Shown one piece after another: positions 10,222-62,426 of a DNA stretch of 64,000 nt. The DNA lies in the IMG/VR virus record IMGVR_UViG_3300032046_000016, positions 16,905 through 80,904 of that record, one strand, 5' to 3'. This stretch comes from a virus. A model generated the notes under the pieces. It saw nothing but the letters and a program-made list of their open reading frames with translations. It searched no databases and was not told the origin of the DNA. Positions within the stretch are counted from its first letter, which is position 1; every line of letters begins with the position of its first letter. The translations under genes and the position numbers were made by a program.

Positions 10222-10486
10222 GGCTGGCCTCCTCTGCCGGTTCTCTACCGCCACCGCCGCTCTCACCCTTCTCAAGGCGCGGGCCCCAATCCTCCGCGCG
10301 CTCTTCGACAGGCACGGCCATGAGCACGCGGCAGCGAAGGCAGGGCACCACGTAGAAGGTCGATGGCTCCCCCGCCGTCGGGCCGAAGTCCAGCAGATGG
10401 AACTCCGACTCGCCCTCGACCTGGACGCTATGCAGGTTCGGCCGGTGGCCGATCAGGACGCACAGCAAGCGCTTAAACAGATTCAT
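10214..10486 (-). CDS. Hypothetical protein (LLC..IGH..CLRC)
   Basis: Overlapping start/stop with neighbours. Confidence 0.5.
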   Translation of the reverse strand: MNLFKRLLCVLIGHRPNLHSVQVEGESEFHLLDFGPTAGEPSTFYVVPCLRCRVLMAVPVEERAEDWGPRLEKGESGGGGREPAEEASRA

Positions 10487-10803
10487 GGCCTCGCTCCCTC
10501 TGCGGCCAGCTCCTCGGGCTCGTCGGCGGTGACGTGCAGGGCGGCGGCCGGCAGTGGTGGAAGCATCTGGACGTCAGCCGCCTCTGCGGGCGCGGCATGG
10601 AGCATCACCGCCGTCATGGCGTCGATCTGCGGGTTCCGGGCGCCATCGAGCAGACCGAGCAACGTCATGCCCGTGACGGTCCAGCCGGACGGCCAGCAGC
10701 CGCGGATGATGCGCTCTGCCGCCTCCGCGTCGTGGACGATGAAGGGTGCCTCCGCCACGACACTACCGTCCTGGTCGAGAACCTTGAGCACATGCAGCTC
10801 CAC
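10483..10803 (-). CDS. Hypothetical protein
   Basis: GGAGGT RBS; follows promoter at 10831-10858. Confidence 0.55.
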   Translation of the reverse strand: MELHVLKVLDQDGSVVAEAPFIVHDAEAAERIIRGCWPSGWTVTGMTLLGLLDGARNPQIDAMTAVMLHAAPAEAADVQMLPPLPAAALHVTADEPEELAAEGARP

Positions 10804-10830
10804 GCTTCACCTCCGACAACTATCGCGCAG

Positions 10831-10858
10831 ATGATAACACAACGACTAAGCCCGTCAA
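10831..10858 (-). promoter_or_regulatory. Sigma70-type promoter (leftward)
   Basis: TTGACG-16-TATCAT with extended TG. Confidence 0.5.
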
Positions 10859-10864
10859 TCGACC

Positions 10865-10892
10865 TTGACAGCACGGACAGGCGTGCTACACT
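10865..10892 (+). promoter_or_regulatory. Sigma70-type promoter (rightward) for candidate sRNA
   Basis: TTGACA-16-TACACT with extended TG; AGCACG-N6-CGTGCT palindrome spanning the spacer. Confidence 0.6.
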
Positions 10893-10895
10893 CAA

Positions 10896-10960
10896 GGTGC
10901 CCCTAAACAGGTGCCCTCCTGTGACGGAGCACAAGAGCGTCGGCGCCAGCCGGCGTTCTT
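10896..10960 (+). ncRNA. Candidate trans-acting antisense sRNA (anti-RBS GGUGCCCUCCUGU)
   Basis: Own promoter, 13-nt complement of shared early-gene RBS, 12-bp terminal hairpin with G.U pairs on + strand. Confidence 0.5.
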
Positions 10961-10966
10961 GATGTC

Positions 10967-11983
10967 TCAGGCAGAGCGCCTCTGGCCGCTCCAAGGAACC
11001 TCCGGGCGGTCCCAGGCACAAGGATCGGCAGCGGCCTTTCGCAGCAGCTTGCCCACGCCAACCCAGCAGCGACGCGAGAACGGCGACACCCTGCAGCGGC
11101 AGCGTGGGTGTAGGGGAGGATGATCGTGGCCGCTCGGAAACATGCCCCCGAAATGGGCGCTGGGAGGCGACGGCGCCAGGAGGCCGGACCGGAGAGGCAC
11201 CGCGCCGGCCGCCTCGTTGTCCCGGCAGCGTGAGCAGGCGCCAAACTGGCAGATCCACTCGACGTACTCCACGCCGTTCTGCTGGAAGGTCATCAGGCGG
11301 CCGATCTGCCGCGTGCGCTTCAGCTCGGTCCTGGCGATCAGCTCGGCGCGGTCCCGGTTCTGAACGATCTTGTCTATCTGGCCAGTCATGCGCTCCGGCC
11401 CGAAGTTGCCGGACAACCCGCGGAGGATGGAGTTGGCGATGGAGCGGCGGGTCTGCTCACGGATTCCCTTGATGCTGGAGCCCACGGTCAGCGACAGCAT
11501 GCGCCGGATCGCTGGGTCGCGGAGAACGAAGCGCTCGGGCGGGAAGCCCTCGCCCTTCGGGCCCGCCTTCTTGACGTCCTGAGCGGTGTAGCCCAGCTCG
11601 GTCAGGGCGTCGGCGCCGCCCCGCTGGAAGCCCAGGATCGCGTCCAGCGCCAGGACCGTTCCCATCTTGGCCCACAGACGCTGCGCCTCCTCGCTATCGT
11701 CCCAGGCTGCCAGCAGCCCCTCGATGCGGCTGCGCGTCGAGTTGGGCGACAGGCGCACCCATTCCTCGACCGGCATCGAACGGCGCAGCTCCGCGAACAG
11801 GCGGAGGACACCGAGGCCGGCCTTTACCTCGTGGGGCTCAATCAGGTCGCGGGGTTTCGGGCGTGTGGGGAGCGGAAGACGGTAGCGTTGCTGGGGCGTC
11901 GCCGCCTTGAGGATGTCAGTCGCCGGAGGGCTGAGAGTCGTGGTCCTGTGCCTCCCTTCGGCGATAGCCGTTACGCTCTCCAA
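10967..11983 (-). CDS. MuF/SPP1 gp7-like minor head protein
   Basis: RAELIARTE, CSRC, PPLHPRCRC motifs; start uncertain. Confidence 0.88.
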   Translation of the reverse strand: MESVTAIAEGRHRTTTLSPPATDILKAATPQQRYRLPLPTRPKPRDLIEPHEVKAGLGVLRLFAELRRSMPVEEWVRLSPNSTRSRIEGLLAAWDDSEEAQRLWAKMGTVLALDAILGFQRGGADALTELGYTAQDVKKAGPKGEGFPPERFVLRDPAIRRMLSLTVGSSIKGIREQTRRSIANSILRGLSGNFGPERMTGQIDKIVQNRDRAELIARTELKRTRQIGRLMTFQQNGVEYVEWICQFGACSRCRDNEAAGAVPLRSGLLAPSPPSAHFGGMFPSGHDHPPLHPRCRCRVSPFSRRCWVGVGKLLRKAAADPCAWDRPEVPWSGQRRSA

Positions 11984-12218
11984 TCGCCGCCATCAGCGCC
12001 TGCAGGAGAAGGTCCCAAGGTCCGAGGCGCCGGCGCGGAAAGCCGGTTACCCGGCCGTGGCGCCAGGCCACACGCGGTCGCCGCCGCTTCGACAGGAACA
12101 CCACGTAGTTGCCCATCGTCGGGCTTCCCGTGCAGTCGTTGGCGATCAGCGCCGTCCCCAGGTGCTCCCGCGGGGCGGCGCCGGCCGCAGGCACGGACTC
12201 GACCGTCACCCTCAACAT
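11916..12218 (-). CDS. Phage hypothetical protein
   Basis: MLRVTVE..IAND.TG...GNY..GFPR..W.LL pattern. Confidence 0.55.
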   Translation of the reverse strand: MLRVTVESVPAAGAAPREHLGTALIANDCTGSPTMGNYVVFLSKRRRPRVAWRHGRVTGFPRRRLGPWDLLLQALMAAIGERNGYRRREAQDHDSQPSGD

Positions 12219-12364
12219 ACCGCCACCGCCTCGGGAGACCGGTTCCTCTTTATCTGTTGCAGGAGAAGCCGTAGCGCGCATTGCAGGCACACGTACTCTT
12301 CCTCAAGAGGGTCGAAGTGCAGATCGCCGCCGCACTTCGGGCAGGCCTTCAGTACGAGCCTCAC
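12212..12364 (-). CDS. Small zinc-finger protein
   Basis: CPKCGGDL...CLQC; GTGA overlap with portal stop. Confidence 0.55.
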   Translation of the reverse strand: MRLVLKACPKCGGDLHFDPLEEEYVCLQCALRLLLQQIKRNRSPEAVAVC

Positions 12365-14004
12365 ACCGCTAGCTGAAACAGCTCCTGCAGGTCCGCGCTC
12401 GCCGCCTTCTTCGTAGCCGCATCCACGCCGGCGTCCCGGAGGTCCTGGATCACGCTGTCGAAGTACCAGCGGATCTCGCCCTCGGTGTCCAGCTCCTGCA
12501 TCGCCTTCTCGACCGCCACCTTCAGCGGGTCGGGAACCTGCGAGCTCAGGAACTTGCGCCGGCGGCCCCGCTCGCAGTCCTTGAGCGCGGCCCTCTTCCA
12601 GCGCCGCATCTCGTCCAGGACAGGCTGAGCGGCGTCGGCCTTCTGCGCCTTGCCTGCGCCCTCGGGCTGCACGAAGAGCGGAGTGGCCGCCTCGCCAGCC
12701 GGCACGAGGCCCTGATTCATCAGGAACGTATCGCCGCCCTCGTAGGGCTCCATGCCGCGCTTGGCGCGCCACTCGTTGCGGGTCTGCAGGCCGGAGCCGA
12801 CCGCGCTCACGCCGACCGCCACCTCGTCGCTTTCCTTGGCGAAGTCCGGAACCTTGAACTGGATGCGCCAGCCCTTGATGCCCTTCCGCCAGAGGCGCCA
12901 CATGTTCAGCGTCGTCTGCACGATCTCCTGCATGGGCTTGGCTTCCATCCAGTACAGGATCTGCTCCAGGCCCTCCAGGTTCGCGCGGTTGACGTCCTCG
13001 ACCATGCCAAGCACGCCCGCCGATGCGCCCACGACGGACAGCATCTCGTTGCGGCTGAACGTCCGGCCCTTCAGGTACTCCGAGTCGCGGCCCGGACCTG
13101 GACCGCTCACGAAGCTCTTGTAGTCGACGCCACCCTTCACGACAACGGCGTCGCGGTTGGCGTTCTCGACCCCCGCATACCAGGCCTCGATCTTAGCCTC
13201 CAGCGCTGCGAAATCGTCGTCCTCGATGTCCTCGGGCGCTGCCCACATGCCTGGTGGGGTGCGCTGATTGCGGAACGAGTTCTTGTTCCACGCCTGGGCG
13301 TACAGATCGGTGATAGCGGCGATGCGCAGCGACTCCAGGTCGGAGGCGGTCCACCGTCCCTCGATGTCGGGCACCTGGAAGTTCAGCACCTCGTCGATGG
13401 CAAACTCGGCGGCTTTGCCCTCGAAGTACTGGATGTACGCCTTCTCCAGGTTGGGGAAGTAGCCCTTGGCGTCCACCATCGGCACCACCCGCCCCGGCAT
13501 GACCACGAAGTCGATCTCGTCGCCGAAGCCGTTCTTGACGATCTCCCACGAGCAGAGGTTAAAGAGCTTCAGCCGGGCGAACGTCAGCCAGAGCTTGTGC
13601 ACGGTGAGCTGCCACTGGCGGACGTTAATCACGGGCCCCTGGAGGTCGGGGTTAAAGAAGGTCCGCAGGTAGGCGCCAGCGTCGGGGTCGGGGTCTTCAC
13701 CCTCTTCCAGCTCGTCGCGGGCCTCGACGATCTCCAGCGGCTGCGCCACGCAGATCAGGGCGATGCGCCGAATGGCGGCGCGCACCCAGGGTAGCGACCG
13801 CCACAGGGCGACGAGCTCGAAGTGGCTGATCTGGGCGCTGCCCTCATACATGGCAGCCATCCCAGCGCCAAGCCCGTACAGGAAAGGTGGCCGCATGAAG
13901 CTGCGCGGCTGCGGCGCGGACTTCGGCGATGGCGTCGCCGCCTTAATGACGCGCCGCTCGTGGCCAGGAGGAAGCCAGAGCTCAACCTCAGTCCCTGTCG
14001 TCAT
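12361..14004 (-). CDS. Portal protein (HK97 family)
   Basis: WVRAAIRRIA, NKNSFRN..PPG, NRAN, TRNEWRA..GMEP..GGD motifs; after terminase. Confidence 0.92.
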   Translation of the reverse strand: MTTGTEVELWLPPGHERRVIKAATPSPKSAPQPRSFMRPPFLYGLGAGMAAMYEGSAQISHFELVALWRSLPWVRAAIRRIALICVAQPLEIVEARDELEEGEDPDPDAGAYLRTFFNPDLQGPVINVRQWQLTVHKLWLTFARLKLFNLCSWEIVKNGFGDEIDFVVMPGRVVPMVDAKGYFPNLEKAYIQYFEGKAAEFAIDEVLNFQVPDIEGRWTASDLESLRIAAITDLYAQAWNKNSFRNQRTPPGMWAAPEDIEDDDFAALEAKIEAWYAGVENANRDAVVVKGGVDYKSFVSGPGPGRDSEYLKGRTFSRNEMLSVVGASAGVLGMVEDVNRANLEGLEQILYWMEAKPMQEIVQTTLNMWRLWRKGIKGWRIQFKVPDFAKESDEVAVGVSAVGSGLQTRNEWRAKRGMEPYEGGDTFLMNQGLVPAGEAATPLFVQPEGAGKAQKADAAQPVLDEMRRWKRAALKDCERGRRRKFLSSQVPDPLKVAVEKAMQELDTEGEIRWYFDSVIQDLRDAGVDAATKKAASADLQELFQLAV

Positions 14005-14153
14005 CTCTTGCTCCTTCGGCGGGCACTAACCGAGCCAGGGAGGATCACGGCGGAGGCGACGCTCTTCCGCGCCTGCTTCCTCGCCTGATGCTTAGCTATC
14101 TCATTCGCCCTGTGCGCGGACGCGGCCCTGCGCTTCCTGGCGTTATGGCTCAC
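14001..14153 (-). CDS. Small very basic peptide (50 aa)
   Basis: MSHNARKRRAASAHRANEIAKHQARKQARKS...; 4-nt overlaps at both ends. Confidence 0.45.
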   Translation of the reverse strand: MSHNARKRRAASAHRANEIAKHQARKQARKSVASAVILPGSVSARRRSKR

Positions 14154-14383
14154 CCGCCGCCACCGTTCCGCTTTCCCTGTTGCTGTGCCTTCTCAGCGAC
14201 CTCGGCCGCCAGCCGGCGATAGGTCGGTCGGGCGGCCACGACGTCCTGGCAGTGGCGCAGGGAGAACATGAAGTGAACCGGATCGCTCGGGGATTGCTGG
14301 GGCAGTTGGGAGAAGGCGGTCCAGGCGGCCGTTAGGTGCTCAAGAAGTGCCTTCTCAGCGTCGGTCAGGCCAGTCTCGCTCAC
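14150..14383 (-). CDS. Hypothetical protein
   Basis: Coupled to terminase stop. Confidence 0.55.
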   Translation of the reverse strand: MSETGLTDAEKALLEHLTAAWTAFSQLPQQSPSDPVHFMFSLRHCQDVVAARPTYRRLAAEVAEKAQQQGKRNGGGG

Positions 14384-15963
14384 CTTTTCCCTCCCAAGAC
14401 CCGGAACTCGGCCTCAGCGGGGAACCCCTTATCTACCCCCACACAGCCGTATGATACAGCATCACAACCGTGATCGGGATTGCTTCCGGCAACATTCTCC
14501 GCAGGCTGCTCGCCGTAGGTCCCATCGGGAAGCTGTACCCTGTGCCACACCTCCATCTCTTCGGCCAGGCCCGGCACTCTCGGGTGCACCTTGAACCGGC
14601 GGTAACCGCTGTTGTCGCGGACGAAGCGCCGATAGACCGACACGCGATCGAGGATTCTCACCGGCTTGCTGAGGTCCCGGACCCGGCAGCGCTTTCGGAT
14701 ACGGTAGGCCGTCTCGGGTGAGCTGGGGTCGCCGTAGGAGACCCGCGGCTTCCTGTACGGGCCCCGCCGCTCGCCGCTGCGCGGGTCGCGGCAGAAGAAG
14801 CGTTCCTCCTTCTCGAGCGAGCCGTCGTGCACGTAGTCGAGGACCTCGTCGATGTCGTGCTGGGTGACGTAGACGCCGTCGAACACGTGGACGTCGCCGT
14901 TCTTGCAGAACTGGCACCAGTAGAGGACAAACGGGTCGGTGAAGCCGTAGTCCCAGCACCAGAACGTGGGGCCGGCCTCCGCGTCGTACTCGGCCTCCTC
15001 CGTCACGTTGCCGTCGGGCAGGACCGACCAGTTGGGCACCACCAGCCCCTGCCGCGACCCTCTTCGCACAAGGTACTGGACGATCCAGGTCTCCTCGTCA
15101 ACCTCCTGGTGCCTGTGCAGGATATCTTCAAGCCTCAGGTGCCCACGGCTGTTTCGAACCCGGCCGCCGCACTCGCTCGGCTCGCGCCACAACGGGCAGC
15201 TCGGCGGCTCCAGGACAATCCCCCGCTTCACCCTCTCGGCGTCCTCACACATCGGGCAGGGCCGCATCGCCTCGTACACACACCAGCGGTAGACCCGGCG
15301 CCCACGCGCCGGCGCCTCATTGATGATCCGCTGCATCGTCCCGTGGACGGTCCGCAGGGCGCTCGTGATGATCTCCTGGAGCGGCACCTCGTCGCTGCTC
15401 AAGGGCATCCCCAGGAACTGCTGATAGACGTCCCACGGGCAGAAGTCGGCCTCGTCCAGCAGGCCGCGCTGCGGGTGCGGGCCCGACACACCGGTTATGG
15501 TCCCGGGCAGGATCGCCACGAACGAGCCGTTGCGATACGTCGTCTTCCTCATCGTCGGCAGGGTCAGCGGGTCGCGGCGGAACGGCTTCATCTGGAAGTA
15601 CTCAAGCAGATAGCCGTAGCCGAGCTGCGCCTGAGCCAGGATCGAGCCAACGTGGTTCGTCCCGCAGCGTTCGCGGAACCGGCTGTTCAGGTGGTCGAGG
15701 ATCGACAGGTTCCTGGTCTTGCCGCCACCGCGCGGGCCCACGACGGCCGCGGATCGGAAGCGGTCGAAGATGGCGTCGGCCATGAAGTCGAGGGGCGCGA
15801 CGTGGTCCTCGCAGACGGCCGCGTAGTCGATGTCAAACCCGAGGTGCTGGCTGACGTAGTGGAAGAGGTGCTCTCTATTCCTCGGCCGGATCTCGGGCAG
15901 GTGGTGCAGCCAGTCTGGGGGCCGACCGCCCTGTGCGGTTCTCGTAGAGGGCGCGGTAGGCAA
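14380..15963 (-). CDS. Terminase large subunit
   Basis: Walker A GPRGGGKT, LLDEAD, nuclease WDYGFTDP, YGDPS, DHGCDAVSY; TTG start inferred. Confidence 0.92.
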   Translation of the reverse strand: MPTAPSTRTAQGGRPPDWLHHLPEIRPRNREHLFHYVSQHLGFDIDYAAVCEDHVAPLDFMADAIFDRFRSAAVVGPRGGGKTRNLSILDHLNSRFRERCGTNHVGSILAQAQLGYGYLLEYFQMKPFRRDPLTLPTMRKTTYRNGSFVAILPGTITGVSGPHPQRGLLDEADFCPWDVYQQFLGMPLSSDEVPLQEIITSALRTVHGTMQRIINEAPARGRRVYRWCVYEAMRPCPMCEDAERVKRGIVLEPPSCPLWREPSECGGRVRNSRGHLRLEDILHRHQEVDEETWIVQYLVRRGSRQGLVVPNWSVLPDGNVTEEAEYDAEAGPTFWCWDYGFTDPFVLYWCQFCKNGDVHVFDGVYVTQHDIDEVLDYVHDGSLEKEERFFCRDPRSGERRGPYRKPRVSYGDPSSPETAYRIRKRCRVRDLSKPVRILDRVSVYRRFVRDNSGYRRFKVHPRVPGLAEEMEVWHRVQLPDGTYGEQPAENVAGSNPDHGCDAVSYGCVGVDKGFPAEAEFRVLGGKR

Positions 15964-16534
15964 CCAGCACCTCTTCCTCGACCTCAGGGGTGGCGCCAGT
16001 CCCAACGAAGACGTTGGTCTGGCTCTGCAGGAAGGTCGGCGGGACCGGGCGCGACGGGTACATTCCCACGTCCTGCCCGATCTCCCATATCTTACCAAGG
16101 ACGGTGACCAGGGTTCGCGTGGCGCCGTCTATCTCTTCCATCAAGAAGCCCCCGCGCGCCCCTTCTTCCACCTCCATCGCCCGACCTATCCGGTCGATCA
16201 AGGACGGCACCAGGCCGCTCAGCACTTCGAGGACGTTGATCTTGACGTCGATGCCGGCGAGCTTCTTCTGGATGAAGCTCTCGGGCAGCATCGCCGCGTC
16301 CGGAACGTGGGCCTCTCGGTAACGCTGGATGCAGCTTCGCCCTGGAATGGCGGCGAGCAGGTCGGGATAGTCGGCGTAGAGCGTGCGCAGGTAGCGTTCG
16401 ACGCTGCCCGGCGACCAGCGCGACTGCAGCAGGTCAACGATGTCGTCGCAGAAGGGCGACGCCTCGACGCGGGACACGTGCCGCCCGCCCAACCGCTGCG
16501 GAGCTTTAACGGGTTCTTCGGGGTTCTCTCTCAT
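15875..16534 (-). CDS. Putative terminase small subunit
   Basis: Helical protein directly upstream of and overlapping TerL. Confidence 0.5.
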   Translation of the reverse strand: MRENPEEPVKAPQRLGGRHVSRVEASPFCDDIVDLLQSRWSPGSVERYLRTLYADYPDLLAAIPGRSCIQRYREAHVPDAAMLPESFIQKKLAGIDVKINVLEVLSGLVPSLIDRIGRAMEVEEGARGGFLMEEIDGATRTLVTVLGKIWEIGQDVGMYPSRPVPPTFLQSQTNVFVGTGATPEVEEEVLVAYRALYENRTGRSAPRLAAPPARDPAEE

Positions 16535-17268
16535 GCCGCCCCCTTCAGCGGCGCGTAGACCTCCAGCAGCTCGTTCAGACGCTCGTTGATGTCCACGCCA
16601 GCGCGCTCGCACTCCTCGGCGATGCGCGTGAGGTTCTTCATCGTACGCTCGCTCGCCCTCACCATCAAGTGCGTCCGGCCAGCGTACTTGAACACGATGA
16701 AGCCCCAGTGCAACTGCTGGCCGTGCTCGGCCGTGATCTGCTTCAGCACCGACGCCAGGTCCTCGACGGTGGTGATTTCCCTCTTCGTCGCATCGAGCCG
16801 CTTGCGGATCTCGGGCGCAAGCTTGGCGCGCACGTCCCGAAACAGGCGCTTGAATTCGCTGTCCTCAGTAACGGCCATCAGCCGCCGTGTGGCGTCGGGC
16901 CCGTACTTGTTCGACAGCTCGAGAAAGACCCTGGTGAAGCCGACTCCGCTCATGCGCCCCTTCAGCATGTTGTCGCGGACCGTCTCGAACTTCCGCTTGT
17001 CCTCGTCGTAGTCGGCGAAGACGATGCAGGGAAGCTCCGGCATCTCCAGGAGCTTGGCGGCGCGCCAGCGATGCTCGCCAGCGATGATCTGGTATCTCCC
17101 GTCCGGCGTCGGCGCCACGCGCAGGGGCATCGTGAAGCCGTCCGCCTTGATGCTCTCCACCAGGGCGGCGAACGCGGCGTCGCTCTCCACGTTCGGGTTC
17201 CACTCGACCGGGTCCAGGAGGTCGACGGCGATCCTCTGCGGCTCCCGGATAGGAGGCGGTTTAGCCAT
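16531..17268 (-). CDS. ParB/Srx-domain protein
   Basis: WNPN..LVESIKADGF..IIAGEHRWRAA. Confidence 0.88.
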   Translation of the reverse strand: MAKPPPIREPQRIAVDLLDPVEWNPNVESDAAFAALVESIKADGFTMPLRVAPTPDGRYQIIAGEHRWRAAKLLEMPELPCIVFADYDEDKRKFETVRDNMLKGRMSGVGFTRVFLELSNKYGPDATRRLMAVTEDSEFKRLFRDVRAKLAPEIRKRLDATKREITTVEDLASVLKQITAEHGQQLHWGFIVFKYAGRTHLMVRASERTMKNLTRIAEECERAGVDINERLNELLEVYAPLKGAA

Positions 17269-17455
17269 CGGCAGGCGGCTCCAGCAATTCGTTGCGCTTC
17301 GCCCGCGGATCGTAGCGTTCCAGGGCCTCATCCACCAGGCGCCGGAGCGCCTCCGTGCGGTTCGTTTCCCAATCGACGGCCAGGTAGTCGATCATCTTCA
17401 CCTGCCTGGTCGGGAGCCAGACATGAACGGCCTTGTCACCTTTACGCGGACTCAT
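17261..17455 (-). CDS. Ribbon-helix-helix DNA-binding protein
   Basis: VHVWLP..ID.LA...NRTEALRRLVDEAL. Confidence 0.7.
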   Translation of the reverse strand: MSPRKGDKAVHVWLPTRQVKMIDYLAVDWETNRTEALRRLVDEALERYDPRAKRNELLEPPADG

Positions 17456-18851
17456 GTTCAGCCTCCATGTAGGACGGCTCGGGCTGCAGGCAGTTGTCGA
17501 CGAAGCCCGCCGGCAGCATGTTCTGGGTGAGGCAGGCGAGCATCTGCCCGCGCGAATTGAGCCCTTGTCGGAGTAGATTCGGCCTCATGTGCACAAGTGC
17601 ACGGCCTAGGTCGCGGTATGAGCAGGGCGTCCCAACGCCGCGCAGGGCATTCTCCACCAGGTCCTCCGTCGCCTCGAGATCTCGGGCGGCGCGTTCGCGG
17701 GCCCGCTCTCTCCTATCGGCTACCCGGGCCTCCACGATGTCCAGGAGCGCGCCGATATTGGCGGTTCGATCGTAGCGCTCCCTAATCAGGGCCGGCACGT
17801 GGGCGATGCGCCGCTTCGCCTCATCGTAGTTCTCGGCCACCCATCGCAGCATAGCGGCGCACTCCACGTCGTTCCGGAAGTAGAAGGGGTAGTCGGGCAG
17901 GAACTCGCCCTCGTTCCCCGTCCAGCGGACGAGCACCACGAGCCCGGCGTAGAGCTGCTCGAAGCAGGCGGCCGGAAACAGCTTCAGCGACTGCCAGTAG
18001 ATGCTGGCGTGGCAGCGGCTCATGAGCGCCAGGGCGTCCTCCCAGGACAGGTTGGACATGGCGCGCACGACGCGCTGGGCGCCCATCCTCTTGACGACGT
18101 CGTGCAGCCGCTTCCCTGTGTCAACGTAGGTCACGTAGACATCGGCCTCCCGGCCGCCGGCGACGTACTGGACGTAGTGCCCAACGGCCTTCTCGCCGCC
18201 CTTCGTCGCCGTGAAGCGCCCGCCGAAGTAGAAGCTGAACCGGTCGAACTTCGGGCCCCGCAGTCGGTCCAGCAGGTCGCAGTCGGGACCGATGGGCAGC
18301 ACCGTGGTCCGCCGGTCGTAGTCGGCAATCAGGGGAGCTCCGCAGAGCGCCGCCACGACGTCCCGGGCCCGCTCCAGGGAGAAACGGCTCGGCATCACGT
18401 TCACGTTCAGGGCGTAGCCCAAGGCCCAGGTCGCCAGGTCATCCCGCGACAGCGGCGTGACCTCGTCCGAGTCGAAGAACTTGGCGCTCACGTTCCAGAT
18501 GACGACAGGCACCTCGTACATCGCCTTGTTCACGCCCTCCAGGAAGCGGCTCAGCACCAGGCCCTGGACGGGATTGTTCGTCAGCACGGCGTCGATGGGA
18601 TAGGCGAGCGGCTCGCGCCAGCGCTCCCACACCGAGGTCGGTATCAGCGCCTCGGCCTGCCGGCCGATCTTTGGCGTAGGCAGAAGGCGCTCGACGCGGT
18701 CGGTCAGGCCGTCAGCGGTGGCGCTGGGAGTGACGTAGTAGGAGAACCAGCCGCGCTCAGCGGCCAGGCGGACCCAGTCCCGGCTCAGGAGCCAGGAGCT
18801 GTCGGCGCCGAAGTGGCCGGCCTCGTAGACCGGGCAGACCAGGAGCCTCAT
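17442..18851 (-). CDS. Glycosyltransferase (GT-B fold, divergent)
   Basis: PSRF, FYFGGRFTATKG, FPAACFEQLYAGLVVL. Confidence 0.72.
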   Translation of the reverse strand: MRLLVCPVYEAGHFGADSSWLLSRDWVRLAAERGWFSYYVTPSATADGLTDRVERLLPTPKIGRQAEALIPTSVWERWREPLAYPIDAVLTNNPVQGLVLSRFLEGVNKAMYEVPVVIWNVSAKFFDSDEVTPLSRDDLATWALGYALNVNVMPSRFSLERARDVVAALCGAPLIADYDRRTTVLPIGPDCDLLDRLRGPKFDRFSFYFGGRFTATKGGEKAVGHYVQYVAGGREADVYVTYVDTGKRLHDVVKRMGAQRVVRAMSNLSWEDALALMSRCHASIYWQSLKLFPAACFEQLYAGLVVLVRWTGNEGEFLPDYPFYFRNDVECAAMLRWVAENYDEAKRRIAHVPALIRERYDRTANIGALLDIVEARVADRRERARERAARDLEATEDLVENALRGVGTPCSYRDLGRALVHMRPNLLRQGLNSRGQMLACLTQNMLPAGFVDNCLQPEPSYMEAEHESA

Positions 18852-19819
18852 ACCAGGATTTCACCCGCGGCGGCCCTATCGACGTCAGCGGCGAGCATCA
18901 TCTCAATGAGCTCGTCGAAAGAGGTACGCGGCCGCCAGCCAAGCTCCTCGAAGGCGCGCGTGGGGTCGGCGATCAGATTGGCGGTCTCCAGAGGGCGCTC
19001 CCGGGCCTCGTCGTGCTTGACTACCTTCTCGGGGTCGAGGCCCGCCAGGCTGCAGGCCAGCGATACCAGCTCGCCGACCGTTCGACCGACGCCGGTCCCG
19101 ATCACCAGGTCCGCCGGCGTGGGCTGCTGGAGCATCAGGTGCACCGCCTCCATGTAGTCGGCGGCGTACCCCCAATCCCGGACGGCCGTCAGCCGGCCGA
19201 TGGGCAGGTAGTCGCGGCGGCCGGCCTTAATCTCGGCCAGCCCCTTCGTCACGTGCCTGGTGACGAACTCCGCACCCCGCCAGGGCGACTCGTGGTTAAA
19301 GAGGATGCCCGACACCACGTACATGCCATAGGACCGCCGATAGACGTCGCACATCTGGTGGGCGAACACCTTCGCGCAGGCGTAGGGGCTCACCGGATGG
19401 AAGGGCGTCGTTTCGCTCTGAGGCGGTGGTGAGTGGCCGAACATCTCAGACGAGCAGGCCTGGTAGACGCGGACCTTGCTCGCCCCCGACTGCCTCACCG
19501 CTTCCAGCACCCTGACGGGCCCGAGACCGGTCAGCAGCGCCGTCAGCTCGACGTGATCCCAGGAAGCCGGCACGAAGGTCAACGCGGCCAGATTGTAGAT
19601 CTCGTCGGGCCCGACCTTCTCAAGGGCGGCGCAGATCGACCACGGGTCGAGTAGGTCGGCGGCCACGAGCTTCATGCCCGGCGCCCGCTGCCGCGCCAGG
19701 GGCTCCCCGTAGCGATCATGGCTGGCCAGCGTACCGAACACCTCGTAGCCCATCTTCTCCAGGTGAACGGCGAGGTACGGCCCGTCCTGGCCGGTGATCC
19801 CCGTGATCAGCGCGCGCAC
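18848..19819 (-). CDS. gmd: GDP-mannose 4,6-dehydratase
   Basis: ALITGITGQDG, EIYNLAA, SSEMFG, SPYACAK, ILFNHES, RDWG. Confidence 0.95.
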   Translation of the reverse strand: MRALITGITGQDGPYLAVHLEKMGYEVFGTLASHDRYGEPLARQRAPGMKLVAADLLDPWSICAALEKVGPDEIYNLAALTFVPASWDHVELTALLTGLGPVRVLEAVRQSGASKVRVYQACSSEMFGHSPPPQSETTPFHPVSPYACAKVFAHQMCDVYRRSYGMYVVSGILFNHESPWRGAEFVTRHVTKGLAEIKAGRRDYLPIGRLTAVRDWGYAADYMEAVHLMLQQPTPADLVIGTGVGRTVGELVSLACSLAGLDPEKVVKHDEARERPLETANLIADPTRAFEELGWRPRTSFDELIEMMLAADVDRAAAGEILV

Positions 19820-20952
19820 ATTACCCTCTCAAGAGCGTCGGCTACTCTCATCACGTCCCGAGCGGATACGTTCGGGCCGATTGGCAGGCAGATGCCCGTC
19901 TTCCAGATGGAGCTCGCGCAGGGCATAGCGTGCACAACGCCGGCGCCGTGGTCCTTATGGAAGGGGAGGAGGTGCATCGGCGTGAAGGCGGCGATGGTCT
20001 CGATGCCGCGCTCGCTGAGGGCGACCGCGACGTCAGCAGGCTGATGGGCAGACTTCAGCGAGACGCAGAGTCGGTAGTAGACGTGACCACGAACGTCGAC
20101 CGGCACGGCGATAGGTAGGTCGCGGAGCGCGGACCTGTAGACCTCGGCTATCCGTTGCCGGTGTGCCACCAGCGACTGCACCCTGCCGATCTGCGGGATG
20201 CCGAAGGCGGCCTGGAGGTTCGACATCTGGCATCCGAAGCCAAGGCCGGCGGCGTCGTAACGGGCCCACTCCCCGACGTGGAGAAACAGATCCCGGCGGG
20301 ATCGGACCGCGATCGCCAGCTCCTCGTCGTCCGTTATGACTGCGCCGCCGGCTCCCCCCGTCGTGATGATCTTGTCGCCACGGAAGCTGAAACAACCGGC
20401 GAGGCCGCTATGCCCGACGAGCCTGCCATCCTCGTACCAGGCGCCGGCCGCCTCGCAAGCGTCCTCGATGATAGGCACCCCGACCTCCTCGCACACCTGA
20501 AAGACGTCGGGATGCACGGGCGCGCCGTAGACGTGAACGGGCACCACGGCCAGGACGTTCGCCGGCCCCAGCTCGGCCAGCAGCTCGGACAGCCGATCGG
20601 GAGCCATCCCAAGGCGCTCAGGCTCGGCGTCTACCACCGCCACCTTGCAGCCGGCATGAACCGCCGCGGCGTAGGTCGGGGCGCAGGTGTAGGTTGCCGT
20701 CACGACGATGGAGCCGGATCTGCGCTCGCGCAGAGCATCCAGGACGGTCAGCAGGGCGGCAGTGCCCGAGCTGACAGCCACGCAGTGCTGGGCGTGGAGG
20801 AAGGCTGACCACATGCGCTCGAAGACCTGCACGTAGTCGCCTGGGGAGAGCCACCCGCTATCGAGGCAGGAGAGAACGCTGGACCGCTCGGGTTCGCCGA
20901 ACTCGGGCGATGTCAGGGCAAGCGGCGGGGACGGCATTGCCATTTGCGCCAA
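19807..20952 (-). CDS. DegT/DnrJ/EryC1/StrS aminotransferase (perosamine synthase-like)
   Basis: SSGTAAL, VHVYG, IIEDACEA, FSFRGDKIITTGG. Confidence 0.9.
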   Translation of the reverse strand: MAQMAMPSPPLALTSPEFGEPERSSVLSCLDSGWLSPGDYVQVFERMWSAFLHAQHCVAVSSGTAALLTVLDALRERRSGSIVVTATYTCAPTYAAAVHAGCKVAVVDAEPERLGMAPDRLSELLAELGPANVLAVVPVHVYGAPVHPDVFQVCEEVGVPIIEDACEAAGAWYEDGRLVGHSGLAGCFSFRGDKIITTGGAGGAVITDDEELAIAVRSRRDLFLHVGEWARYDAAGLGFGCQMSNLQAAFGIPQIGRVQSLVAHRQRIAEVYRSALRDLPIAVPVDVRGHVYYRLCVSLKSAHQPADVAVALSERGIETIAAFTPMHLLPFHKDHGAGVVHAMPCASSIWKTGICLPIGPNVSARDVMRVADALERVMCAR

Positions 20953-20985
20953 TGATACTCGAAGGGTCGGGGGCTGAAAAGAGGG

Positions 20986-21738
20986 CTACGGCACTCGCTG
21001 GAACAGAACGGCGGCATACCGCCAGCGGTGCGCTCGCACCAGGCGGGCCAGCACGATGTCGAGGGGCAGAGTGATCGCGAAAGCGAGCGGCGCCAGCAGG
21101 TGGCGGAACAAGGCCCGGTCCAGGACGTTGACGCCCACGCCACGCTCGACCATGAAGCCGTTACTAGCGAACTCGCACACCAGGGGCGCCAGCTCCACAG
21201 GTTCCTTATACGGCAGGCCCCGTTGCCAGGGCGGTGACGGCGTCTGCAGATTGTCCAGGACGAGGACGCGGTCGGCCAGGCGGCACATCTCGCTCACGAC
21301 CAGGCGCCAATCGTTCGAGAACGGCAGGCTGGTTATCGCCACGGCCAAGTGCGGCCGCACTTCCCGCAGCCAGGGAATCTCGCTCATAGTCTCGGCATCG
21401 GCGACGGCGAAGTGGCCGAACGGACCGATCTCTCGCTGGTCTCTAACGTCGCGCAGGTGCTTTCTGAGCTGCGACATGCGGTGCGCCGCTCCTGGCCAGT
21501 CTACGGCGTCTATCCCCCACACCTCGCAGTGGAAGCGCCGCGCCATCCACGCGCTCAGTTTGGCGTCGCCGCACCCAACGTCAAGCACGCGCGGCAGGCC
21601 GGGCAAGCGGGGAAAGATGCGCACCAACGCTGCCTTGCGCACCAGGTCGGCGTAGGCGTCCAGCCAGCGATCACGATAGTGACACGGCGACGAATCACCT
21701 TGCCGGCGGGACCAGAAGGCTCTATCCCGGAGCGGCAT
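20986..21738 (-). CDS. Class I SAM-dependent methyltransferase
   Basis: VLDVGCGDA..WGID. Confidence 0.8.
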   Translation of the reverse strand: MPLRDRAFWSRRQGDSSPCHYRDRWLDAYADLVRKAALVRIFPRLPGLPRVLDVGCGDAKLSAWMARRFHCEVWGIDAVDWPGAAHRMSQLRKHLRDVRDQREIGPFGHFAVADAETMSEIPWLREVRPHLAVAITSLPFSNDWRLVVSEMCRLADRVLVLDNLQTPSPPWQRGLPYKEPVELAPLVCEFASNGFMVERGVGVNVLDRALFRHLLAPLAFAITLPLDIVLARLVRAHRWRYAAVLFQRVP

Positions 21739-22096
21739 GGCCACCTTCTCGGAACACCACGTCAAACGCCCGCTGCAGGTCGAGGCAGCGCCCTTCCCGG
21801 TGAAAGCGCGCCTTGCCGAGTTTCTCGGCGGCCATCACCGCCGCCATGCGACCCTGTTCCTCGCTAAACGGCTCTGCCCCCGACGACATGACGTGCTGAT
21901 CCCCGCATGGGCAACTGAGGCGATACAAGACCACCGGCATCGCACCCGGGTCGTCGGGGTGCGCCATCTCCAGATGTCTCTCCGCTCGTCTGAACCACTC
22001 AAACCGTCGCTCCTCGACTTTGGCGCCCAGGGCGATGGCTGCCCGCTCGAAGGCCAGGCAGTAGGCGTCGATCTCGTCCAGGTCGCGCGCCGGCAT
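21722..22096 (-). CDS. Hypothetical protein
   Basis: ORF in operon, CPCG motif. Confidence 0.45.
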   Translation of the reverse strand: MPARDLDEIDAYCLAFERAAIALGAKVEERRFEWFRRAERHLEMAHPDDPGAMPVVLYRLSCPCGDQHVMSSGAEPFSEEQGRMAAVMAAEKLGKARFHREGRCLDLQRAFDVVFREGGHAAPG

Positions 22097-22098
22097 CG

Positions 22099-22482
22099 TC
22101 AGCACCTGAGGGGGATCACAAGCCGCTCGGACCAAAGCGGCAACGGCGAGTCGGGGAAGGCGTCGCGGCCCTCGCCACACCACTCGAAGATGTAGAAGGA
22201 TGCGGGAGCGTACCCGCGCGGCATTGCCAGGCCGCCCCAATAGCTGTGCCCGGGCACCTTGATCGCCAGGAAGCGCCCTCCCTTCGCCACGACCCGGAAG
22301 CGGTTCTTTCCGCTGATCGTGGACATGCCGGTGTCGAGCCAGAGCTGCTCGTCCTCTTCGACCAGTCGTGCTCCGATGATCATGTGCGAACCCCTAACAA
22401 ATGCGCTCTGTAGCCCCTGGAGCGCCTCGTAGCGCCTTCTAAGCAGAACGGCAGGGTGGGTGGTTTGGGGGTTGCTCCTCAT
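22099..22482 (-). CDS. Hypothetical protein
   Basis: ORF in operon. Confidence 0.5.
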   Translation of the reverse strand: MRSNPQTTHPAVLLRRRYEALQGLQSAFVRGSHMIIGARLVEEDEQLWLDTGMSTISGKNRFRVVAKGGRFLAIKVPGHSYWGGLAMPRGYAPASFYIFEWCGEGRDAFPDSPLPLWSERLVIPLRC

Positions 22483-22713
22483 GCCTCGCTAGGTCGGTAT
22501 CTTGTGGCGCTGGCCCGTAGAGGCCAGGGCAGCGCGCCGAAGGCCCTCGTCGTAGTCACCGTGGCGACCAGGATAACGCCGGCACTTGGCCTCGCCTACC
22601 GCCGCCAGCATCATGCCCAGGACCGCCGGATGCCACGTCTCCATCTCAGACGCTACTGCGCCTATATCCATCCGGTTAAGGTGCTCGTGGGCTTCCTAAA
22701 GGTCATGACCATT

Positions 22714-22935
22714 CTACAACTCCGACCACCAGGGCGGTGGCCAACTCGTGCCGGCCAGGGCGTAGTCTAACCTCTCAGACGCCCTCTCTGTTCGGCGACG
22801 CGAGGCGCCGGCGCACTCATGCTCGGCTGCGCAGCCGTCGCAGAGAACGTCGCCGCAGACCGGGCAGGTGGCCGCGTTATCAGACATCATGGTGCGCTGG
22901 CAGCTCTGGCAGGTCTCCGTCTGTGGCTCCGTCAT
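22714..22935 (-). CDS. Small Zn-finger protein
   Basis: CQSC..CPVC..CDGC..HEC. Confidence 0.55.
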   Translation of the reverse strand: MTEPQTETCQSCQRTMMSDNAATCPVCGDVLCDGCAAEHECAGASRRRTERASERLDYALAGTSWPPPWWSEL

Positions 22936-24369: not shown

Positions 24370-24395
24370 GGTGCCCTCCTGTTGTCCGTGAGTAT

Positions 24396-24424
24396 AGTGT
24401 AGCACCCGACATCGCTGACGGCAA
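24396..24424 (-). promoter_or_regulatory. Sigma70-type promoter
   Basis: TTGCCG-17-TACACT, extended TG. Confidence 0.6.
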
Positions 24425-24432
24425 ATTACTCG

Positions 24433-26265: not shown

Positions 26266-26356
26266 GCTCGGCCTTCTGCCTCGGGGGCGGAACGTCCTGG
26301 TGGCATGGGGCAATTTCCGTTCCCGCCCCCAGGCGCAGCGGGCCGAGCGACCCGCC

Positions 26357-27562: not shown

Positions 27563-27617
27563 GTCACCTTCCTTCCCCAGCCGGTATATCACCGGCTACT
27601 ATGCTACCCGCCAATCT

Positions 27618-29281: not shown

Positions 29282-29469
29282 GGCTTACCTCTCGTTCGAT
29301 AGGCGACCTTCCTTGTCGATCTCTTCCTCGTGCCGATCAGACAGTCCGCTGGCGCCTCGCTGATTCGGACGGGCAAGCGGCCTGGCACTAGCTGATACGG
29401 CTCGACTACCGGACAGCCAGGGCAAGACCGGCACAGACAAACGGGACATGGCGTAGCAGATACAAGCAA
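29278..29469 (-). CDS. Cys-rich leader peptide coupled to ku
   Basis: TTG after AGGAGGGCACC; CPVCLCRSCPGC; ATGA overlap with ku. Confidence 0.45.
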   Translation of the reverse strand: MLVSATPCPVCLCRSCPGCPVVEPYQLVPGRLPVRISEAPADCLIGTRKRSTRKVAYRTRGKP

Positions 29470-29499
29470 ACTCGGTGCCCTCCTGTTGTCGTTAAGTAA

Positions 29500-29528
29500 A
29501 GTGTAGCAGAGTGGTACAGCGTCGTCAA
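29500..29528 (-). promoter_or_regulatory. Sigma70-type promoter of ku-ligase operon
   Basis: TTGACG-17-TACACT, extended TG. Confidence 0.75.
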
Positions 29529-33972: not shown

Positions 33973-36470
33973 TCAGCCAACACGCACCCGAAGCCCCTGG
34001 CGACCGGCCTCACTCCTTACCCTGGCTTTGATCTCCGCAAGCTTGACATCCACGTTGACCCGCGCGCCGCGGAGCCCGAACACCTCTCTACCCCAGAAGC
34101 GGCAGGCCCACAGGAGCCGGTTGCCGAGAACGGGCGATCTCACCCAGGTGCCGGCCGTGACGCTGAAGAAGCGGTCACTATCGAGGGCACCCAGGACGGC
34201 AGCCGCGAATTCTGCGTAGACGTGGGGCTCCCGATAGTGCCCTGGCAGGTTCAGCATCATCAATCCGTGGGCGCCCTTGCGGTACGCGGACACGTAGATC
34301 GTCCGAGCCTCCACGGGCTCTTCCAGCGCCATCTGTCTCGCCAGCTCACGGAACGTCTCCGGGCTCAGGCCCGAGTTGTCCAGGAGCGGGCAGGAGTGCC
34401 CGCTGCCATCTTCACGAAGCACCACGTCCTCGTAGCAGAACGGGCAGATCATCTTCTCTTTCATCGCACGTCAGTCCTCCTCGGCGGTGAGCGACCAAGC
34501 GTCGTGCTGCGGGAGCCGGGCGACCCATTCGCGCGCCACCTGGAAGGTCGGGAAGCGCCCGGGCATGGCGTCGGCCAGGACCGCCGCCAATCCGGTCGGC
34601 CCCTCCCCGAGATACCCCCAGGCGAATCCCAGGAACTTCACCGTCTTGCCGTTCTCGCCCACCAGCTCCACGGCACCCCAGACGTCATCCTCGTAGGGCC
34701 GGCTGCGGGCCATGCGCACAGGACCGAACGCTTCGCGCAGCCGCCACCACTTCGCCTTGCTGAACACCGTGATACCTGGGCGGCTGGCGTCGTCACCGTC
34801 CCAATCGGGCTGGTTGCCCCTCACCCACTTGTCAGCGTCTCTCAGCTTCATCACCGCCATGATGACGATGCCTTCCCCATGGCAGACGGTACACTGCACG
34901 GCCGGGCCACAGCCCGTGCCCTGGCAGGCCGCGCAATCTTCATCCGCGGGCTGTTGGCCGCCCTGGGTGCAATCGCAAGGCGTCTCGACCTGCCCCTCGA
35001 AGCAATCGGGGCAGTACGCCTCGTCTTTCTCAGCGTTTGGCATTCTCGCCATGGTCAGTCTCCTTCAGGTCAATACGACCCTCTTTGTCATACCGCAGGA
35101 TGCTCTCCGTCTTCAGTCCAAGCAGCGGCTCGTCAAGCCAGAGCACGGCGGCAGCGCGAATCTCCAAGTCGCCAGCGGACACCGATTCGCCTGAGCGCCG
35201 GATCTTCCACATCACGAACCGCGATCTTCCATCCTGGTGGCGTGCCGAGAGCAGCAGGACCTCGCGCCGGTTCGGATTCAGCGCCGGCCTCAACTGGCCG
35301 AGCATGTCGTCCAGTGGCAGGTCCGGCAATATCCAGGCCTCCGAGACCTCGATGTACCAGTCGGCTCGGCCAGCATACCGCCGAGCCAGGACCTGTCTCA
35401 TTACCTCTCTCTCGGCATTATCTCGATAGACCAGGCCGCCGATTGTCACCTCGCCCCCGTAGAACACCATGACCAGGTGCGTGTGCCGGCCGTCCTTCGC
35501 CAGGATGAGGGGAGCCTGGACCTCAGCGTAGGCCACCAGGCGGTCGAACTCGTCCATCTCAGCTCTCGACGTTCACGTTCTTCTCGCACAGATCCTGGGC
35601 CGCCTGAACGTGGGTCAGGATCGCGTCGAGCGTCTTGTTCCTACGCGGGTGACGCCCCTCATTGCTGTGCCAGTCCTTCTCGTCTCGCACTCGGTCGTAC
35701 AGGGCGTCTAGCACGACCCATAGGCTGCTCCACGGTTCAGTCAATTCCGACGGGGCATGGCTGGCAAAGGCGTTCAGCTCGTCGATAGCCGGAACCCGGC
35801 GCTCCACCCGCATCCGACTGGAGCGTTCCTTCGCTTGTCGTTGGAGCTCTTCCCCCACGGCCGCCTGGACGTCAAACGCCCATTTGGCGAGCGGTGGGGC
35901 ATCAGGGTCTTCGCTCGTGAGACCTGGGACGAGCTCGTGCTCGTCAACGTATACCTGCACTAGCAATTCGACCTCCTCCCTCAGCCCTTGAACTGAGGCT
36001 CCGTCATGAGCGAGCCGTGGCCGGCCACTGCCTGGCAGCGGTTGGTGGCATGAAGGCCGGTCGTGTAACCGACCGGACAGGTGGGGCTCATGGCCACCGT
36101 CACCGTGAAGTCGCGGTAGCCGAGGTCTCCAAGCCGCCCGGCAATGAGCTCGGCCGCTCGCCGCTCATCGAGGACGTTGTCATTGATGACGATGGTGACT
36201 TCCATCAGGGTGCCCTCCTTCGGCCTGCCTCATTCAGCGCCGGTCGGCCAGCTCCGGCGGACGGGCCCGCGGCCCGTTTCGGCTTCAGTCGGGGCTCAGC
36301 TCGACGACGAGATCGTTGGCCTGGGTCAGATGCCGACAGGCTTGGCTCAACGTATCCCGTTCGGTGGTGGGCGCCTCCTGGCCACCGTCACACCGCCTCA
36401 GTGCGGTGTTGGCCGCGCGCACCGCCTCGTCTACCGCCTGGGCCAATTGCTCGTAGTCTGTCCGTCTCAT
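33973..36470 (-). other. Cluster of hypothetical ORFs (33973-34464, 34471-35052, 35030-35557, 35559-35966, 35981-36205, 36285-36470)
   Basis: Packed ORFs with RBSs; 34471-35052 has DnaJ-like CxxCxGxG repeats. Confidence 0.5.
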
Positions 36471-36614
36471 GTGGTGCCCTCCTGTCTTTTCAGGCTGCCT
36501 ATTAGTCGCACCTTGGGCAGTGGAGCCAGGGAATCTTGCCGCCGATCATGGCGAGCAGGATCGGTCCACCGCACTTGCCGCATCGTCTCGACTTCATGAT
36601 TGCTCCTTCCGCTC

Positions 36615-44016: not shown

Positions 44017-44041
44017 TCAGATGCCCTCCTATGCTGTGTAC

Positions 44042-50962: not shown

Positions 50963-50997
50963 TGGTGCCCTCCTGATTCATTGTGGTCGGCGGGTAT

Positions 50998-61890: not shown

Positions 61891-62395
61891 GGTGGTGGTC
61901 CCCCTCTGTTTCTTGTTTCCTATGGTTCGTGGCAGGATGGGATAGACCCTTCATCCCTATACGGATGGTAGGGGTTATCCCTTCTGGACAGGCCCCGTAT
62001 CCCGCCTGGGAATTTCCCGACACGATGTAAAGGCAGCCGGTCTCCAGCGCCATCTCGAGCTGCGGCGGGCCCACGCCTGGCCACTCGAAGATCAGCCGGT
62101 TGAACGACCACTGGCCGGCCTCAAGCAGGAGGACATGGGAGCGAACGAGTCGGTGGGCGGCGCGCCTTGCGTATGCCCAGTTGGGGCCGAACATCGCGCG
62201 CCATTGCTTCGGGGCTACCGCCGCGTGACCGTCGTCCCGGCGCCAGCTATAGACCTGGAGGGCGAGGAAGGCGCAGACACGGGTCTGCAGCGGCGTCAGG
62301 TCAGCCGCTGCGATGCCATACTGGATCAGCTTAGGGATTGCGGTGTAACCGTCTTCGATGGCGGCGACGCCGCGGCGGAAGTCCCCCTTCGCCAT
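61652..62395 (-). CDS. Lambda O-like replication initiator
   Basis: EDGYTAIP..I...LT..Q.RV...VYSW N-terminus; upstream of DnaC-like gene. Confidence 0.65.
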   Translation of the reverse strand: MAKGDFRRGVAAIEDGYTAIPKLIQYGIAAADLTPLQTRVCAFLALQVYSWRRDDGHAAVAPKQWRAMFGPNWAYARRAAHRLVRSHVLLLEAGQWSFNRLIFEWPGVGPPQLEMALETGCLYIVSGNSQAGYGACPEGITPTIRIGMKGLSHPATNHRKQETEGDHHHADHAQRRGDSDGLQAEEGEGPAADAAGAEGGVRPSGGRQRVDRPARSPAAAAGGAQAHRRRPDHGTAERVMREMGWSP

Positions 62396-62426
62396 GTGCC
62401 CTCCTGCTTCGTGTGACGGAACGTGT

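Follow-up and report, generated by a model that had tools for sequence, protein, structure and literature searches.

A predicted small RNA with complementarity to a ribosome-binding tag shared by early genes of an uncultured temperate phage

A number of phages maintain immunity by means of small antisense RNAs, as exemplified by C4 of P1 and P7 and by CI of P4, which are processed from the operon transcript that they regulate and which act at one or two sites. In Gram-positive bacteria, RNAs such as RsaE/RoxS and RNAIII contain C-rich loops (UCCC) that pair with the generic Shine-Dalgarno (SD) sequence together with a short variable flank. The late regions of phages can also harbour morons, which are autonomous inserts consisting of a promoter, a gene and a terminator that are typically expressed from the prophage.

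The closest known phenomenon to the system described here, and one that was absent from the original prediction made for this DNA, is the start-associated sequence (SAS) of the Cluster K mycobacteriophages. The SAS is a 13-nt asymmetric sequence with an SD core, which is found in one orientation and only within the non-structural half of the genome (Pope et al. 2011; PMC3203893). As to its partner, the authors allowed for 'either RNA or protein', and the K1 phages contain one odd-oriented SAS that lies away from any gene start (PMC3203893). The role of the SAS was still called unknown in 2024 (PMC11373665) and in 2025 (PMC12699233), and no small RNA matching it is described for Cluster K in these three papers. 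The stoperators of L5 and the Cluster A phages, on the other hand, are DNA sites for the repressor and are untied to either an SD sequence or a start codon (PMC3203893).

The phage considered here is uncultured and is represented by a single virus record of 80,904 bp with a G+C content of 65.8%, which IMG/VR classifies as linear and ~84% complete. The window, meaning the whole 64,000-nucleotide stretch that was analysed, corresponds to bases 16905-80904 of this record. The phage sequence is present in several sediment metagenomes, no sequencing run on record as RNA contains it, and searches with blastn and tblastn gave no nucleotide or close protein match to deposited phages. A gene map based upon codon-position G+C places nearly all of the genes on the minus strand, and at least 76% of the genome is coding. 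Read in the minus direction, the gene order proceeds from an HNH-like gene, a replication-initiator-like gene, a DnaC-like loader, SbcCD, Ku-ligase and the ParBs through a sugar pathway to the terminase, the portal and a MuF-like head protein, after which come the head and tail genes and, at the far end, a tyrosine integrase. The presence of this integrase at the far end of the record indicates that the phage is temperate.

The early genes share an extended ribosome-binding site (RBS) in the form of a 13-nt tag, ACAGGAGGGCACC. The window contains four exact and seven near copies (two or fewer mismatches), when only 2.59 +/- 1.5 are expected, and none of 100 shuffles reached 11 matches. Every copy, including the one at position 10910, is found on the minus strand, which is also the strand of nearly all of the genes. 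Within the window the minus strand bears 11 occurrences of the core of the tag, GGAGGGCA, and the plus strand none. Genome-wide the minus-strand count rises to 12, of which nine are located at translation starts or in leaders, and the plus strand again has none. At six early genes (tags at 24370, 36473, 36209, 44020, 50964 and 62395) the distance from the end of the tag to the start codon is -1 to 3 nt. The copies that are linked to a start are all found between 24 and 63 kb of the window, and the late region contains no copy besides the 10910 orphan. As had been claimed when the extended site was proposed to be limited to early genes, the late and structural genes are instead preceded by GGAGGT-type sites, which fit canonical 16S rRNA. 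The three exact copies that were reported at 24370, 29474 and 36473 are all present, as are the near copies at 50964, 36209 and 62395, whereas the copy before sbcD has 11 of 13 matches and attains 12 only in the shifted register that was used originally (Table 1).

The tag always includes GGAGG, and several of the tagged genes are found inside operons, far from any promoter. Copies also occur 9-21 bp after the -10 element at five promoters, one of these being the + strand promoter at 10865. At the replication-initiator site there is an extra TCCGTCA(CA) match to the RNA locus, located 5-7 nt upstream of the 62395 tag, but this is taken as a hint only because its p value of ~0.02, calculated before correction for eight comparisons, fails that correction. 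A further tag-like site, ACAGGAGGGACCA, is found before a 417-aa gene at L002 3282-4535.

The Ku-ligase leader (29282-29493, minus strand) is ~210 nt long and carries its tag ~6 nt from the predicted 5' end. No start codon is found at RBS distance from this copy, the nearest ones being either too far away or opening frames of non-coding composition, and in this leader the tag may act as a 5' stabiliser or as a standby site. The leader also contains a 54-codon frame, of non-coding composition, whose end is 1 nt short of the Ku start codon. An Rfam Hammerhead_II match (36219-36284, minus strand; 41.1 bits against a gathering score of 37, E 6e-05) occupies the spacer that separates the 61-aa and 74-aa open reading frames (ORFs) and extends exactly to the tag of the 74-aa ORF. 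The GAAA and GUC elements of the hammerhead are present and its CUGAUGA core contains a 1-nt insertion (CUGAaUGA). Cleavage is predicted after C36260, such that the downstream message would begin 38 nt before its tag. Apart from the hammerhead the window gave no Rfam match. A weak tRNA-like hit at 63538-63600 (+), at 27.4 bits, is under the gathering score of 29, and ARAGORN identified no tRNA in the window.

The GCACC part of the tag mismatches the canonical 16S tail, GAUCACCUCCUUUCU. The earlier statement that this extension is not anti-16S holds for that canonical 3' end only. Homologues of Ribosomal_S21, CsrA and Hfq, the only three families that were tested, are not encoded by the phage, which weakly disfavours a known protein as the reader of the tag. 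Recognition by CsrA was considered and dropped, since the motif, on our reading, misfits the ACARGGA register and a CsrA gene is lacking.

Table 1. Coordinates of the tag copies, of the elements at the 10910 locus and of selected genes (positions are those of the window unless L002 is given)
Feature	Position	Strand	Details
Exact tag	24370..24382	-	Directly before GTG of ParB (290 aa), 13 nt after -10 of TGCTACACT promoter
Exact tag	29474..29486	-	5' end of Ku-ligase leader, 13 nt after TGCTACACT promoter
Exact tag	36473..36485	-	2 nt before ATG of 61-aa ORF
Tag, 11/13	36209..36221	-	3 nt before ATG of 74-aa ORF, directly after hammerhead-II match
Tag, 11/13	44020..44032	-	3 nt before ATG of SbcD (396 aa), 9 nt after promoter
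Tag, 12/13	50964..50976	-	1 nt before ATG of 83-aa ORF, 21 nt after promoter
Tag, 11 contiguous matches	62395..62407	-	Overlaps ATG of replication-initiator-like gene
Promoter TTGACA-16-(TGc)TACACT, sigma-70-type	10865..10892	+	One of the four best-scoring promoter-like sites of the 81-kb genome
Divergent promoter TTGACG-16-(TGt)TATCAT	10831..10858	-	Drives 106-aa gene and head genes
Predicted transcription start	10896..10899	+	G residues, 4-7 nt after -10; inferred from sequence
GGTGCCCCT motif	10896-10904	+	
Anti-tag 13-mer GGTGCCCTCCTGT	10910..10922	+	Minus strand is the orphan tag copy
5' stem-loop (predicted)	10897..10932	+	-12.3 kcal/mol, z -2.35
3' hairpin (predicted), 13-bp, GC-rich, GCCA loop	10932..10961	+	Presumed RNA 3' end or terminator
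106-aa gene, no assigned function	10483-10803		Other side of spacer from MuF
MuF-like head protein	10967-11983		Minus-strand order
Portal	12361-14004		Minus-strand order
Tyrosine integrase	L002 594-1559	-	PHROG 1, E 3e-41

The MuF gene and the 106-aa gene are separated by 163 nt, and it is in this spacer that the orphan copy is located. On the minus strand there is no ATG, GTG or TTG within the 18 nt behind it, and the lone open frame (CTG/TTG), which was rejected as a translated product, has GC1/2/3 values of 0.49/0.72/0.64 and overlaps the next gene. The 10910 copy therefore cannot be an RBS. On the opposite strand, and as originally predicted, there is a promoter with a TTGACA -35 element, a 16-nt spacer and a TACACT -10 element extended by TG. 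The original placement of GGTGCCCCT and GGTGCCCTCCTGT behind this promoter was likewise accurate. A genome-wide search for TTGACA-16/18-TAnnnT sites gave a bonus for TGn and employed a cut-off score of at least 10. In it this promoter, with its extended -10, scores 12 on a 14-point scale and ties for first place; a separate promoter call counted 10 of 12 hexamer matches. The scan returned 17 sites, 16 of which are intergenic, and for a genome that is at least 76% coding this shows that the calls are not noise. The -10 element (TGCTACACT) is identical to those of the early promoters at 24396 (parB), 29500 (Ku) and 55657.

The promoter is arranged back-to-back with an equally strong promoter on the minus strand, their -35 elements being 6 bp apart. 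The spacer of the + strand promoter is taken up by a perfect inverted repeat, AGCACG-N6-CGTGCT (10870-10887), which occurs nowhere else in the genome and may represent an operator for this promoter. The orphan copy lies 17 nt downstream of the promoter; given that both are confined to intergenic DNA, the probability of such an adjacency by chance is estimated at p ~0.05. It is this promoter that renders the 10910 copy antisense, as had been proposed, although in terms of the DNA strand the copy is no different from the others. The original contention that no convincing ORF follows the promoter is also borne out, as the + strand frame at 10911-11123 was rejected on account of GC1/2/3 values of 0.70/0.64/0.71, which reflect a non-coding composition.

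Transcription from this promoter would generate an RNA of ~65 nt that is predicted to adopt the same fold whichever start within 10896-10899 is chosen. The 5' stem-loop is composed of an apical stem, ACAGG/CCUGU, and an outer stem, GUGC.CC/GG.GCAC. The private part of the tag, AGGGCA, has its complement in the 6-nt loop, UGCCCU (10912-10917), and the 13-nt anti-tag spans the loop and the 3' arm, with part of it held inside the 5-bp stem. The 10910 copy is the only one to be followed by TGT, and it is this TGT that forms the ACAGG/CCUGU stem in which UGCCCU is displayed. The GGTGCCCCT motif had been put forward as a second seed but is not one; it forms the base of the 5' stem, where it pairs with GGAGCAC.

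The 3' hairpin was originally described as a 12-bp structure at 10933-10960; it is in fact one base pair longer and occupies 10932-10961, though its two G.U pairs do exist on the + strand only. On the minus strand the corresponding positions are A.C and C.A mismatches, and the hairpin is therefore more stable on the + strand (-26.0 kcal/mol, z -5.65) than on the minus strand (-14.7 kcal/mol, z -2.0). The values for the whole RNA are -36.2 kcal/mol (z -5.2) on the + strand versus -27.8 kcal/mol (z -1.5) on the minus strand. Among 42 intergenic hairpins 26 favour the minus strand, and the 10932 hairpin belongs to the four that are most strongly + strand-favoured. It is followed by AUGUCUC, which is weak, rather than by a canonical U-tract, and the terminator scan called nothing here. 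Rfam gave no match at the 10865-10961 locus even at E values of up to 10.

Seed duplexes with the eight tagged translation-initiation regions (TIRs) are predicted to have energies of -27 to -35 kcal/mol, in comparison to a median of -16.8 kcal/mol over 76 TIRs and of ~-11 kcal/mol for canonical anti-SD pairing, and the duplex with the Ku leader is predicted at -32.6 kcal/mol. Whole-length duplex scans of the genome yielded mainly GC-rich noise and were set aside.

A second + strand unit with the same design is found at 50611-50712. It consists of a TTGACA-16-TACAAT promoter, a 5' hairpin with the loop CUAACC and a 3' hairpin (-29.3 kcal/mol on the + strand versus -18.7 kcal/mol on the minus strand) with a UCUUUC tail, which is also among the four most + strand-favoured of the 42. 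The anti-tag is absent from this unit, which is antisense to the spacer before a 132-aa gene. Both units reside in a spacer just downstream of a minus-strand gene and adjoin the start of the next gene. Two other intergenic hairpins also differ between strands, one at 40632-40675 (-30.3 kcal/mol on + versus -14.6 kcal/mol on minus), which adjoins the gene-poor stretches 37763-39176 and 39288-40738, and the other at 26271-26314 (-25.8 kcal/mol on + versus -11.3 kcal/mol on minus).

The phage may also possess a protein-based means of control. A palindrome, TTGACAACAnTGTTGTC(A/T), covers the -35 element of two early promoters (55657-55685 and 36868-36896, both on the minus strand), and the tags at 24370 and 29474 directly adjoin its half-site, GACAACA. 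Moreover, a gene encoding an HTH_17 protein (55704-55937, + strand) diverges from the 55657 promoter. The gene and the palindromic operators together look like a protein-based switch region, which makes doubtful the original remark that no repressor was recognised. A separate palindrome of 14-16 bp, with the core TCCAGACGTCTGGA, is present in four copies (window 7506, 25659 and 48905; L002 ~3195) and, of all words in the genome, only the tag is repeated more often.

The best single explanation for the locus is that 10865-10961 encodes a trans-acting anti-tag small RNA (sRNA), since there is a real shared RBS, an orphan copy of it, a strong promoter, a + strand hairpin and strong predicted pairing. 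We hold this reading tentatively, at slightly below an even chance. From the sequence features we infer that the RNA is made and where its 3' end lies, that it pairs in vivo, and the direction and timing of its effect. The locus would thus be an autonomous moron-like transcription unit on the opposite strand to nearly all of the phage genes, whose host-type promoter makes an RNA that starts at ~10896-10899 and ends just past the 10932-10961 hairpin. The 5' stem-loop would present UGCCCU, permitting the RNA to nucleate on the AGGGCA part of the tag, from where the pairing would zip to 11-13 bp, and to ~18 bp at the replication-initiator gene. The duplex would cover the RBS of ~8 early messages, comprising parB, two small ORFs, sbcD, the 83-aa ORF, the replication initiator, the HNH-like gene (weakly) and the 5' end of the Ku-ligase leader. 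The tagged set would consequently be turned down together in translation, or the messages would become exposed to RNases.

Expression of the RNA in the lysogen, or from the start of infection, is favoured because the unit has its own consensus promoter inside a silent late region, and expression from the prophage is plausible given a moron-like build that points against that region. The sRNA would in this way provide a second, RNA-based layer that holds the replication and repair genes down. The original proposal, namely that one RNA silences the early operons, is partly supported by the motif set, the promoter, the + strand hairpin and the strong predicted pairing, and weakened by the absence of a canonical U-tract and by the enclosure of part of the anti-tag in a stem.

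The same observations can be assembled in other ways. All of the tag copies, that at 10910 included, are on the same strand, which would be in keeping with a tag that is read by a protein or by the ribosome, the 10910 copy being a relic or a spare sense copy in the MuF-to-head spacer and the + strand unit being real but only local in its effect. It would act as a cis-antisense RNA or as a transcriptional insulator at the late-operon junction, where it would stop or modulate read-through from MuF, with the complementarity to the tag as a by-product. The 50611-50712 unit demonstrates that such units exist in this phage without an anti-tag, both units have the same placement downstream of one minus-strand gene and beside the start of the next, and, judging by the 29474 copy, a tag need not be near a start codon to function. 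However, an exact 13-mer that lacks a start is not expected to survive without selection, and no copy other than that at 10910 is flanked by the TGT needed for the hairpin in which the private tag segment is exposed. Neither was a candidate RNA-binding protein found among the S21, CsrA and Hfq families. This local role, although the main rival, is considered rather unlikely. The trans-acting sRNA, although it too falls short of being probable, accounts for the exact startless tag, its unique flanks, the early-class promoter and a strand-specific hairpin at the right distance, which is more than is achieved by any other single reading.

The placement of the tag behind promoters raises the improbable alternative of a stoperator-like DNA operator, at which a bound protein would block the elongating polymerase just downstream of the early promoters and, at 10910, would likewise block both the + strand promoter and read-through from MuF. 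A 13-bp, asymmetric, intergenic motif in one orientation would suit such a function, as would copies set 9-21 bp downstream of the -10 element in five promoters, including that on the + strand, and the operator half-sites that abut the tag at 24370 and 29474. The constant GGAGG and, at six genes of which several lie inside operons and far from promoters, the close spacing to the start (-1 to 3 nt) point instead towards translation, and the 10910 site is oriented opposite to the others relative to its promoter. Indeed, the same contrast between SAS and stoperators was drawn by Pope et al. (PMC3203893). It is also conceivable, if very improbable, that nothing functional arises from the + strand, with the promoter-like site being a by-product of the minus promoter region, the hairpin the terminator of MuF and the orphan the decaying RBS of a lost gene. 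The lack of a U-tract on the + strand and the position of the hairpin, 6 nt after the MuF stop codon, are both in agreement with this. Yet on the minus strand the hairpin, with its two mismatches, folds no better than many shuffles (z -2.0), the promoter reaches 12 out of 14 with an extended -10 and an exact early -10 element, and the tag copy is exact rather than decayed.

Four relatives, with portal proteins 41-44% identical, were found from searches of deposited phages, IMG/VR, JGI metagenome records and GTDB genomes. They contain ~2 tag-like RBSs each, including CAGGAGGGCA at the homologous replication-initiator start, and the promoter design of these distant relatives is also TTGACA-17-TGCTACNNT. 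No anti-tag unit is recognisable in these four, which are too distant for covariation. A repeat, TGTGACGGAG, in the relative L003 was considered as a tag and rejected as a local tandem duplication. Closer relatives exist on contigs of 1.9-6.4 kb, with portal and MuF proteins that are 75-81% and ~60% identical, respectively; the MuF matches are on contigs of 5.7 and 6.4 kb, the latter of which also carries a portal that is 75% identical. Scans of IMG/VR with the MuF protein, the 106-aa protein, P0002 and two DNA patterns returned nothing or an unrelated low-GC jumbo phage, two metagenome scans found no relatives, and a portal profile gave no match to bacterial and archaeal genomes. The promoter-plus-tag pattern gave seven single hits in bacterial and archaeal genomes, three of them in Chloroflexota, and none of the seven genomes has similarity to the phage. 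The contigs of four sediment DNA runs over 10400-30399 were short and mixed.

With respect to the known systems, the candidate sRNA gene is well formed and is akin to both the phage antisense RNAs and the multi-target sRNAs with C-rich loops. As with C4 and CI, a small phage RNA would expose a sequence that pairs with RBS or leader sequences to hold lytic functions down, so that the analogy drawn originally with P1 C4 and P4 CI is sound at the level of mechanism. It does not extend to homology with these RNA families, as there is no Rfam match at the locus, nor to organisation, since the candidate has its own promoter, is far from its targets and would act through a shared tag at ~8 dispersed sites. 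In the manner of RsaE/RoxS and RNAIII, a C-rich hairpin loop (UGCCCU here) would be directed against the G-rich SD regions of several messages, but the targets in the phage carry an identical private 13-mer, which places the specificity in the tag and makes for a regulon that is wholly phage-encoded. The consensus promoter, the short product and the hairpin between two late genes are reminiscent of a moron, except that here an RNA would be produced and the direction of the unit is opposite to that of the late operon. With stoperators the tag shares a 13-bp asymmetric form, many copies, one orientation and a location in short intergenic spaces, and it differs from them in its link to the SD sequence and start codon.

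The tag motif set is real, and its resemblance to the SAS of Cluster K, as judged from the sequence, extends to several features. Both are 13-nt asymmetric motifs with an SD core, found in many copies and in one orientation a few nt before the starts (mostly ATG) of non-structural genes. The conserved flanks of the SAS cannot pair with 16S rRNA, and the GCACC flank of the tag would be their counterpart if the host has the canonical 16S tail. As with the ESAS, a subset lies behind promoters with inverted repeats. The sequence itself is unrelated (ACAGGAGGGCACC here and GGGATAGGAGCCC in Cluster K), and the tag is therefore an analogue of the SAS and not a member. There are also fewer copies (four exact and ~5 near) in what is a different, uncultured lineage, and the odd copy is on the same DNA strand as the others, being made antisense by a dedicated opposing promoter. 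The phage thus adds a SAS-like instance in a lineage unrelated to the mycobacteriophages, and one that has a mirror copy with a very clear promoter. If the partner of such tags were a small phage RNA, then a single RNA could govern how a whole class of early genes is translated. It is possible, if somewhat doubtful, that a master RNA encoded by the phage uses SAS-type tags as its addresses, and that one RNA of ~65 nt switches ~8 replication, partition and repair messages together. This would represent the first mechanism for a class of motif that has been unexplained since 2011, it would define a regulon by its tag rather than by operon structure, and it would introduce a new layer to the lysis-lysogeny or early-late decision. 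The candidate anti-tag sRNA resembles, by analogy, an answer to the unsolved SAS of the Cluster K mycobacteriophages.
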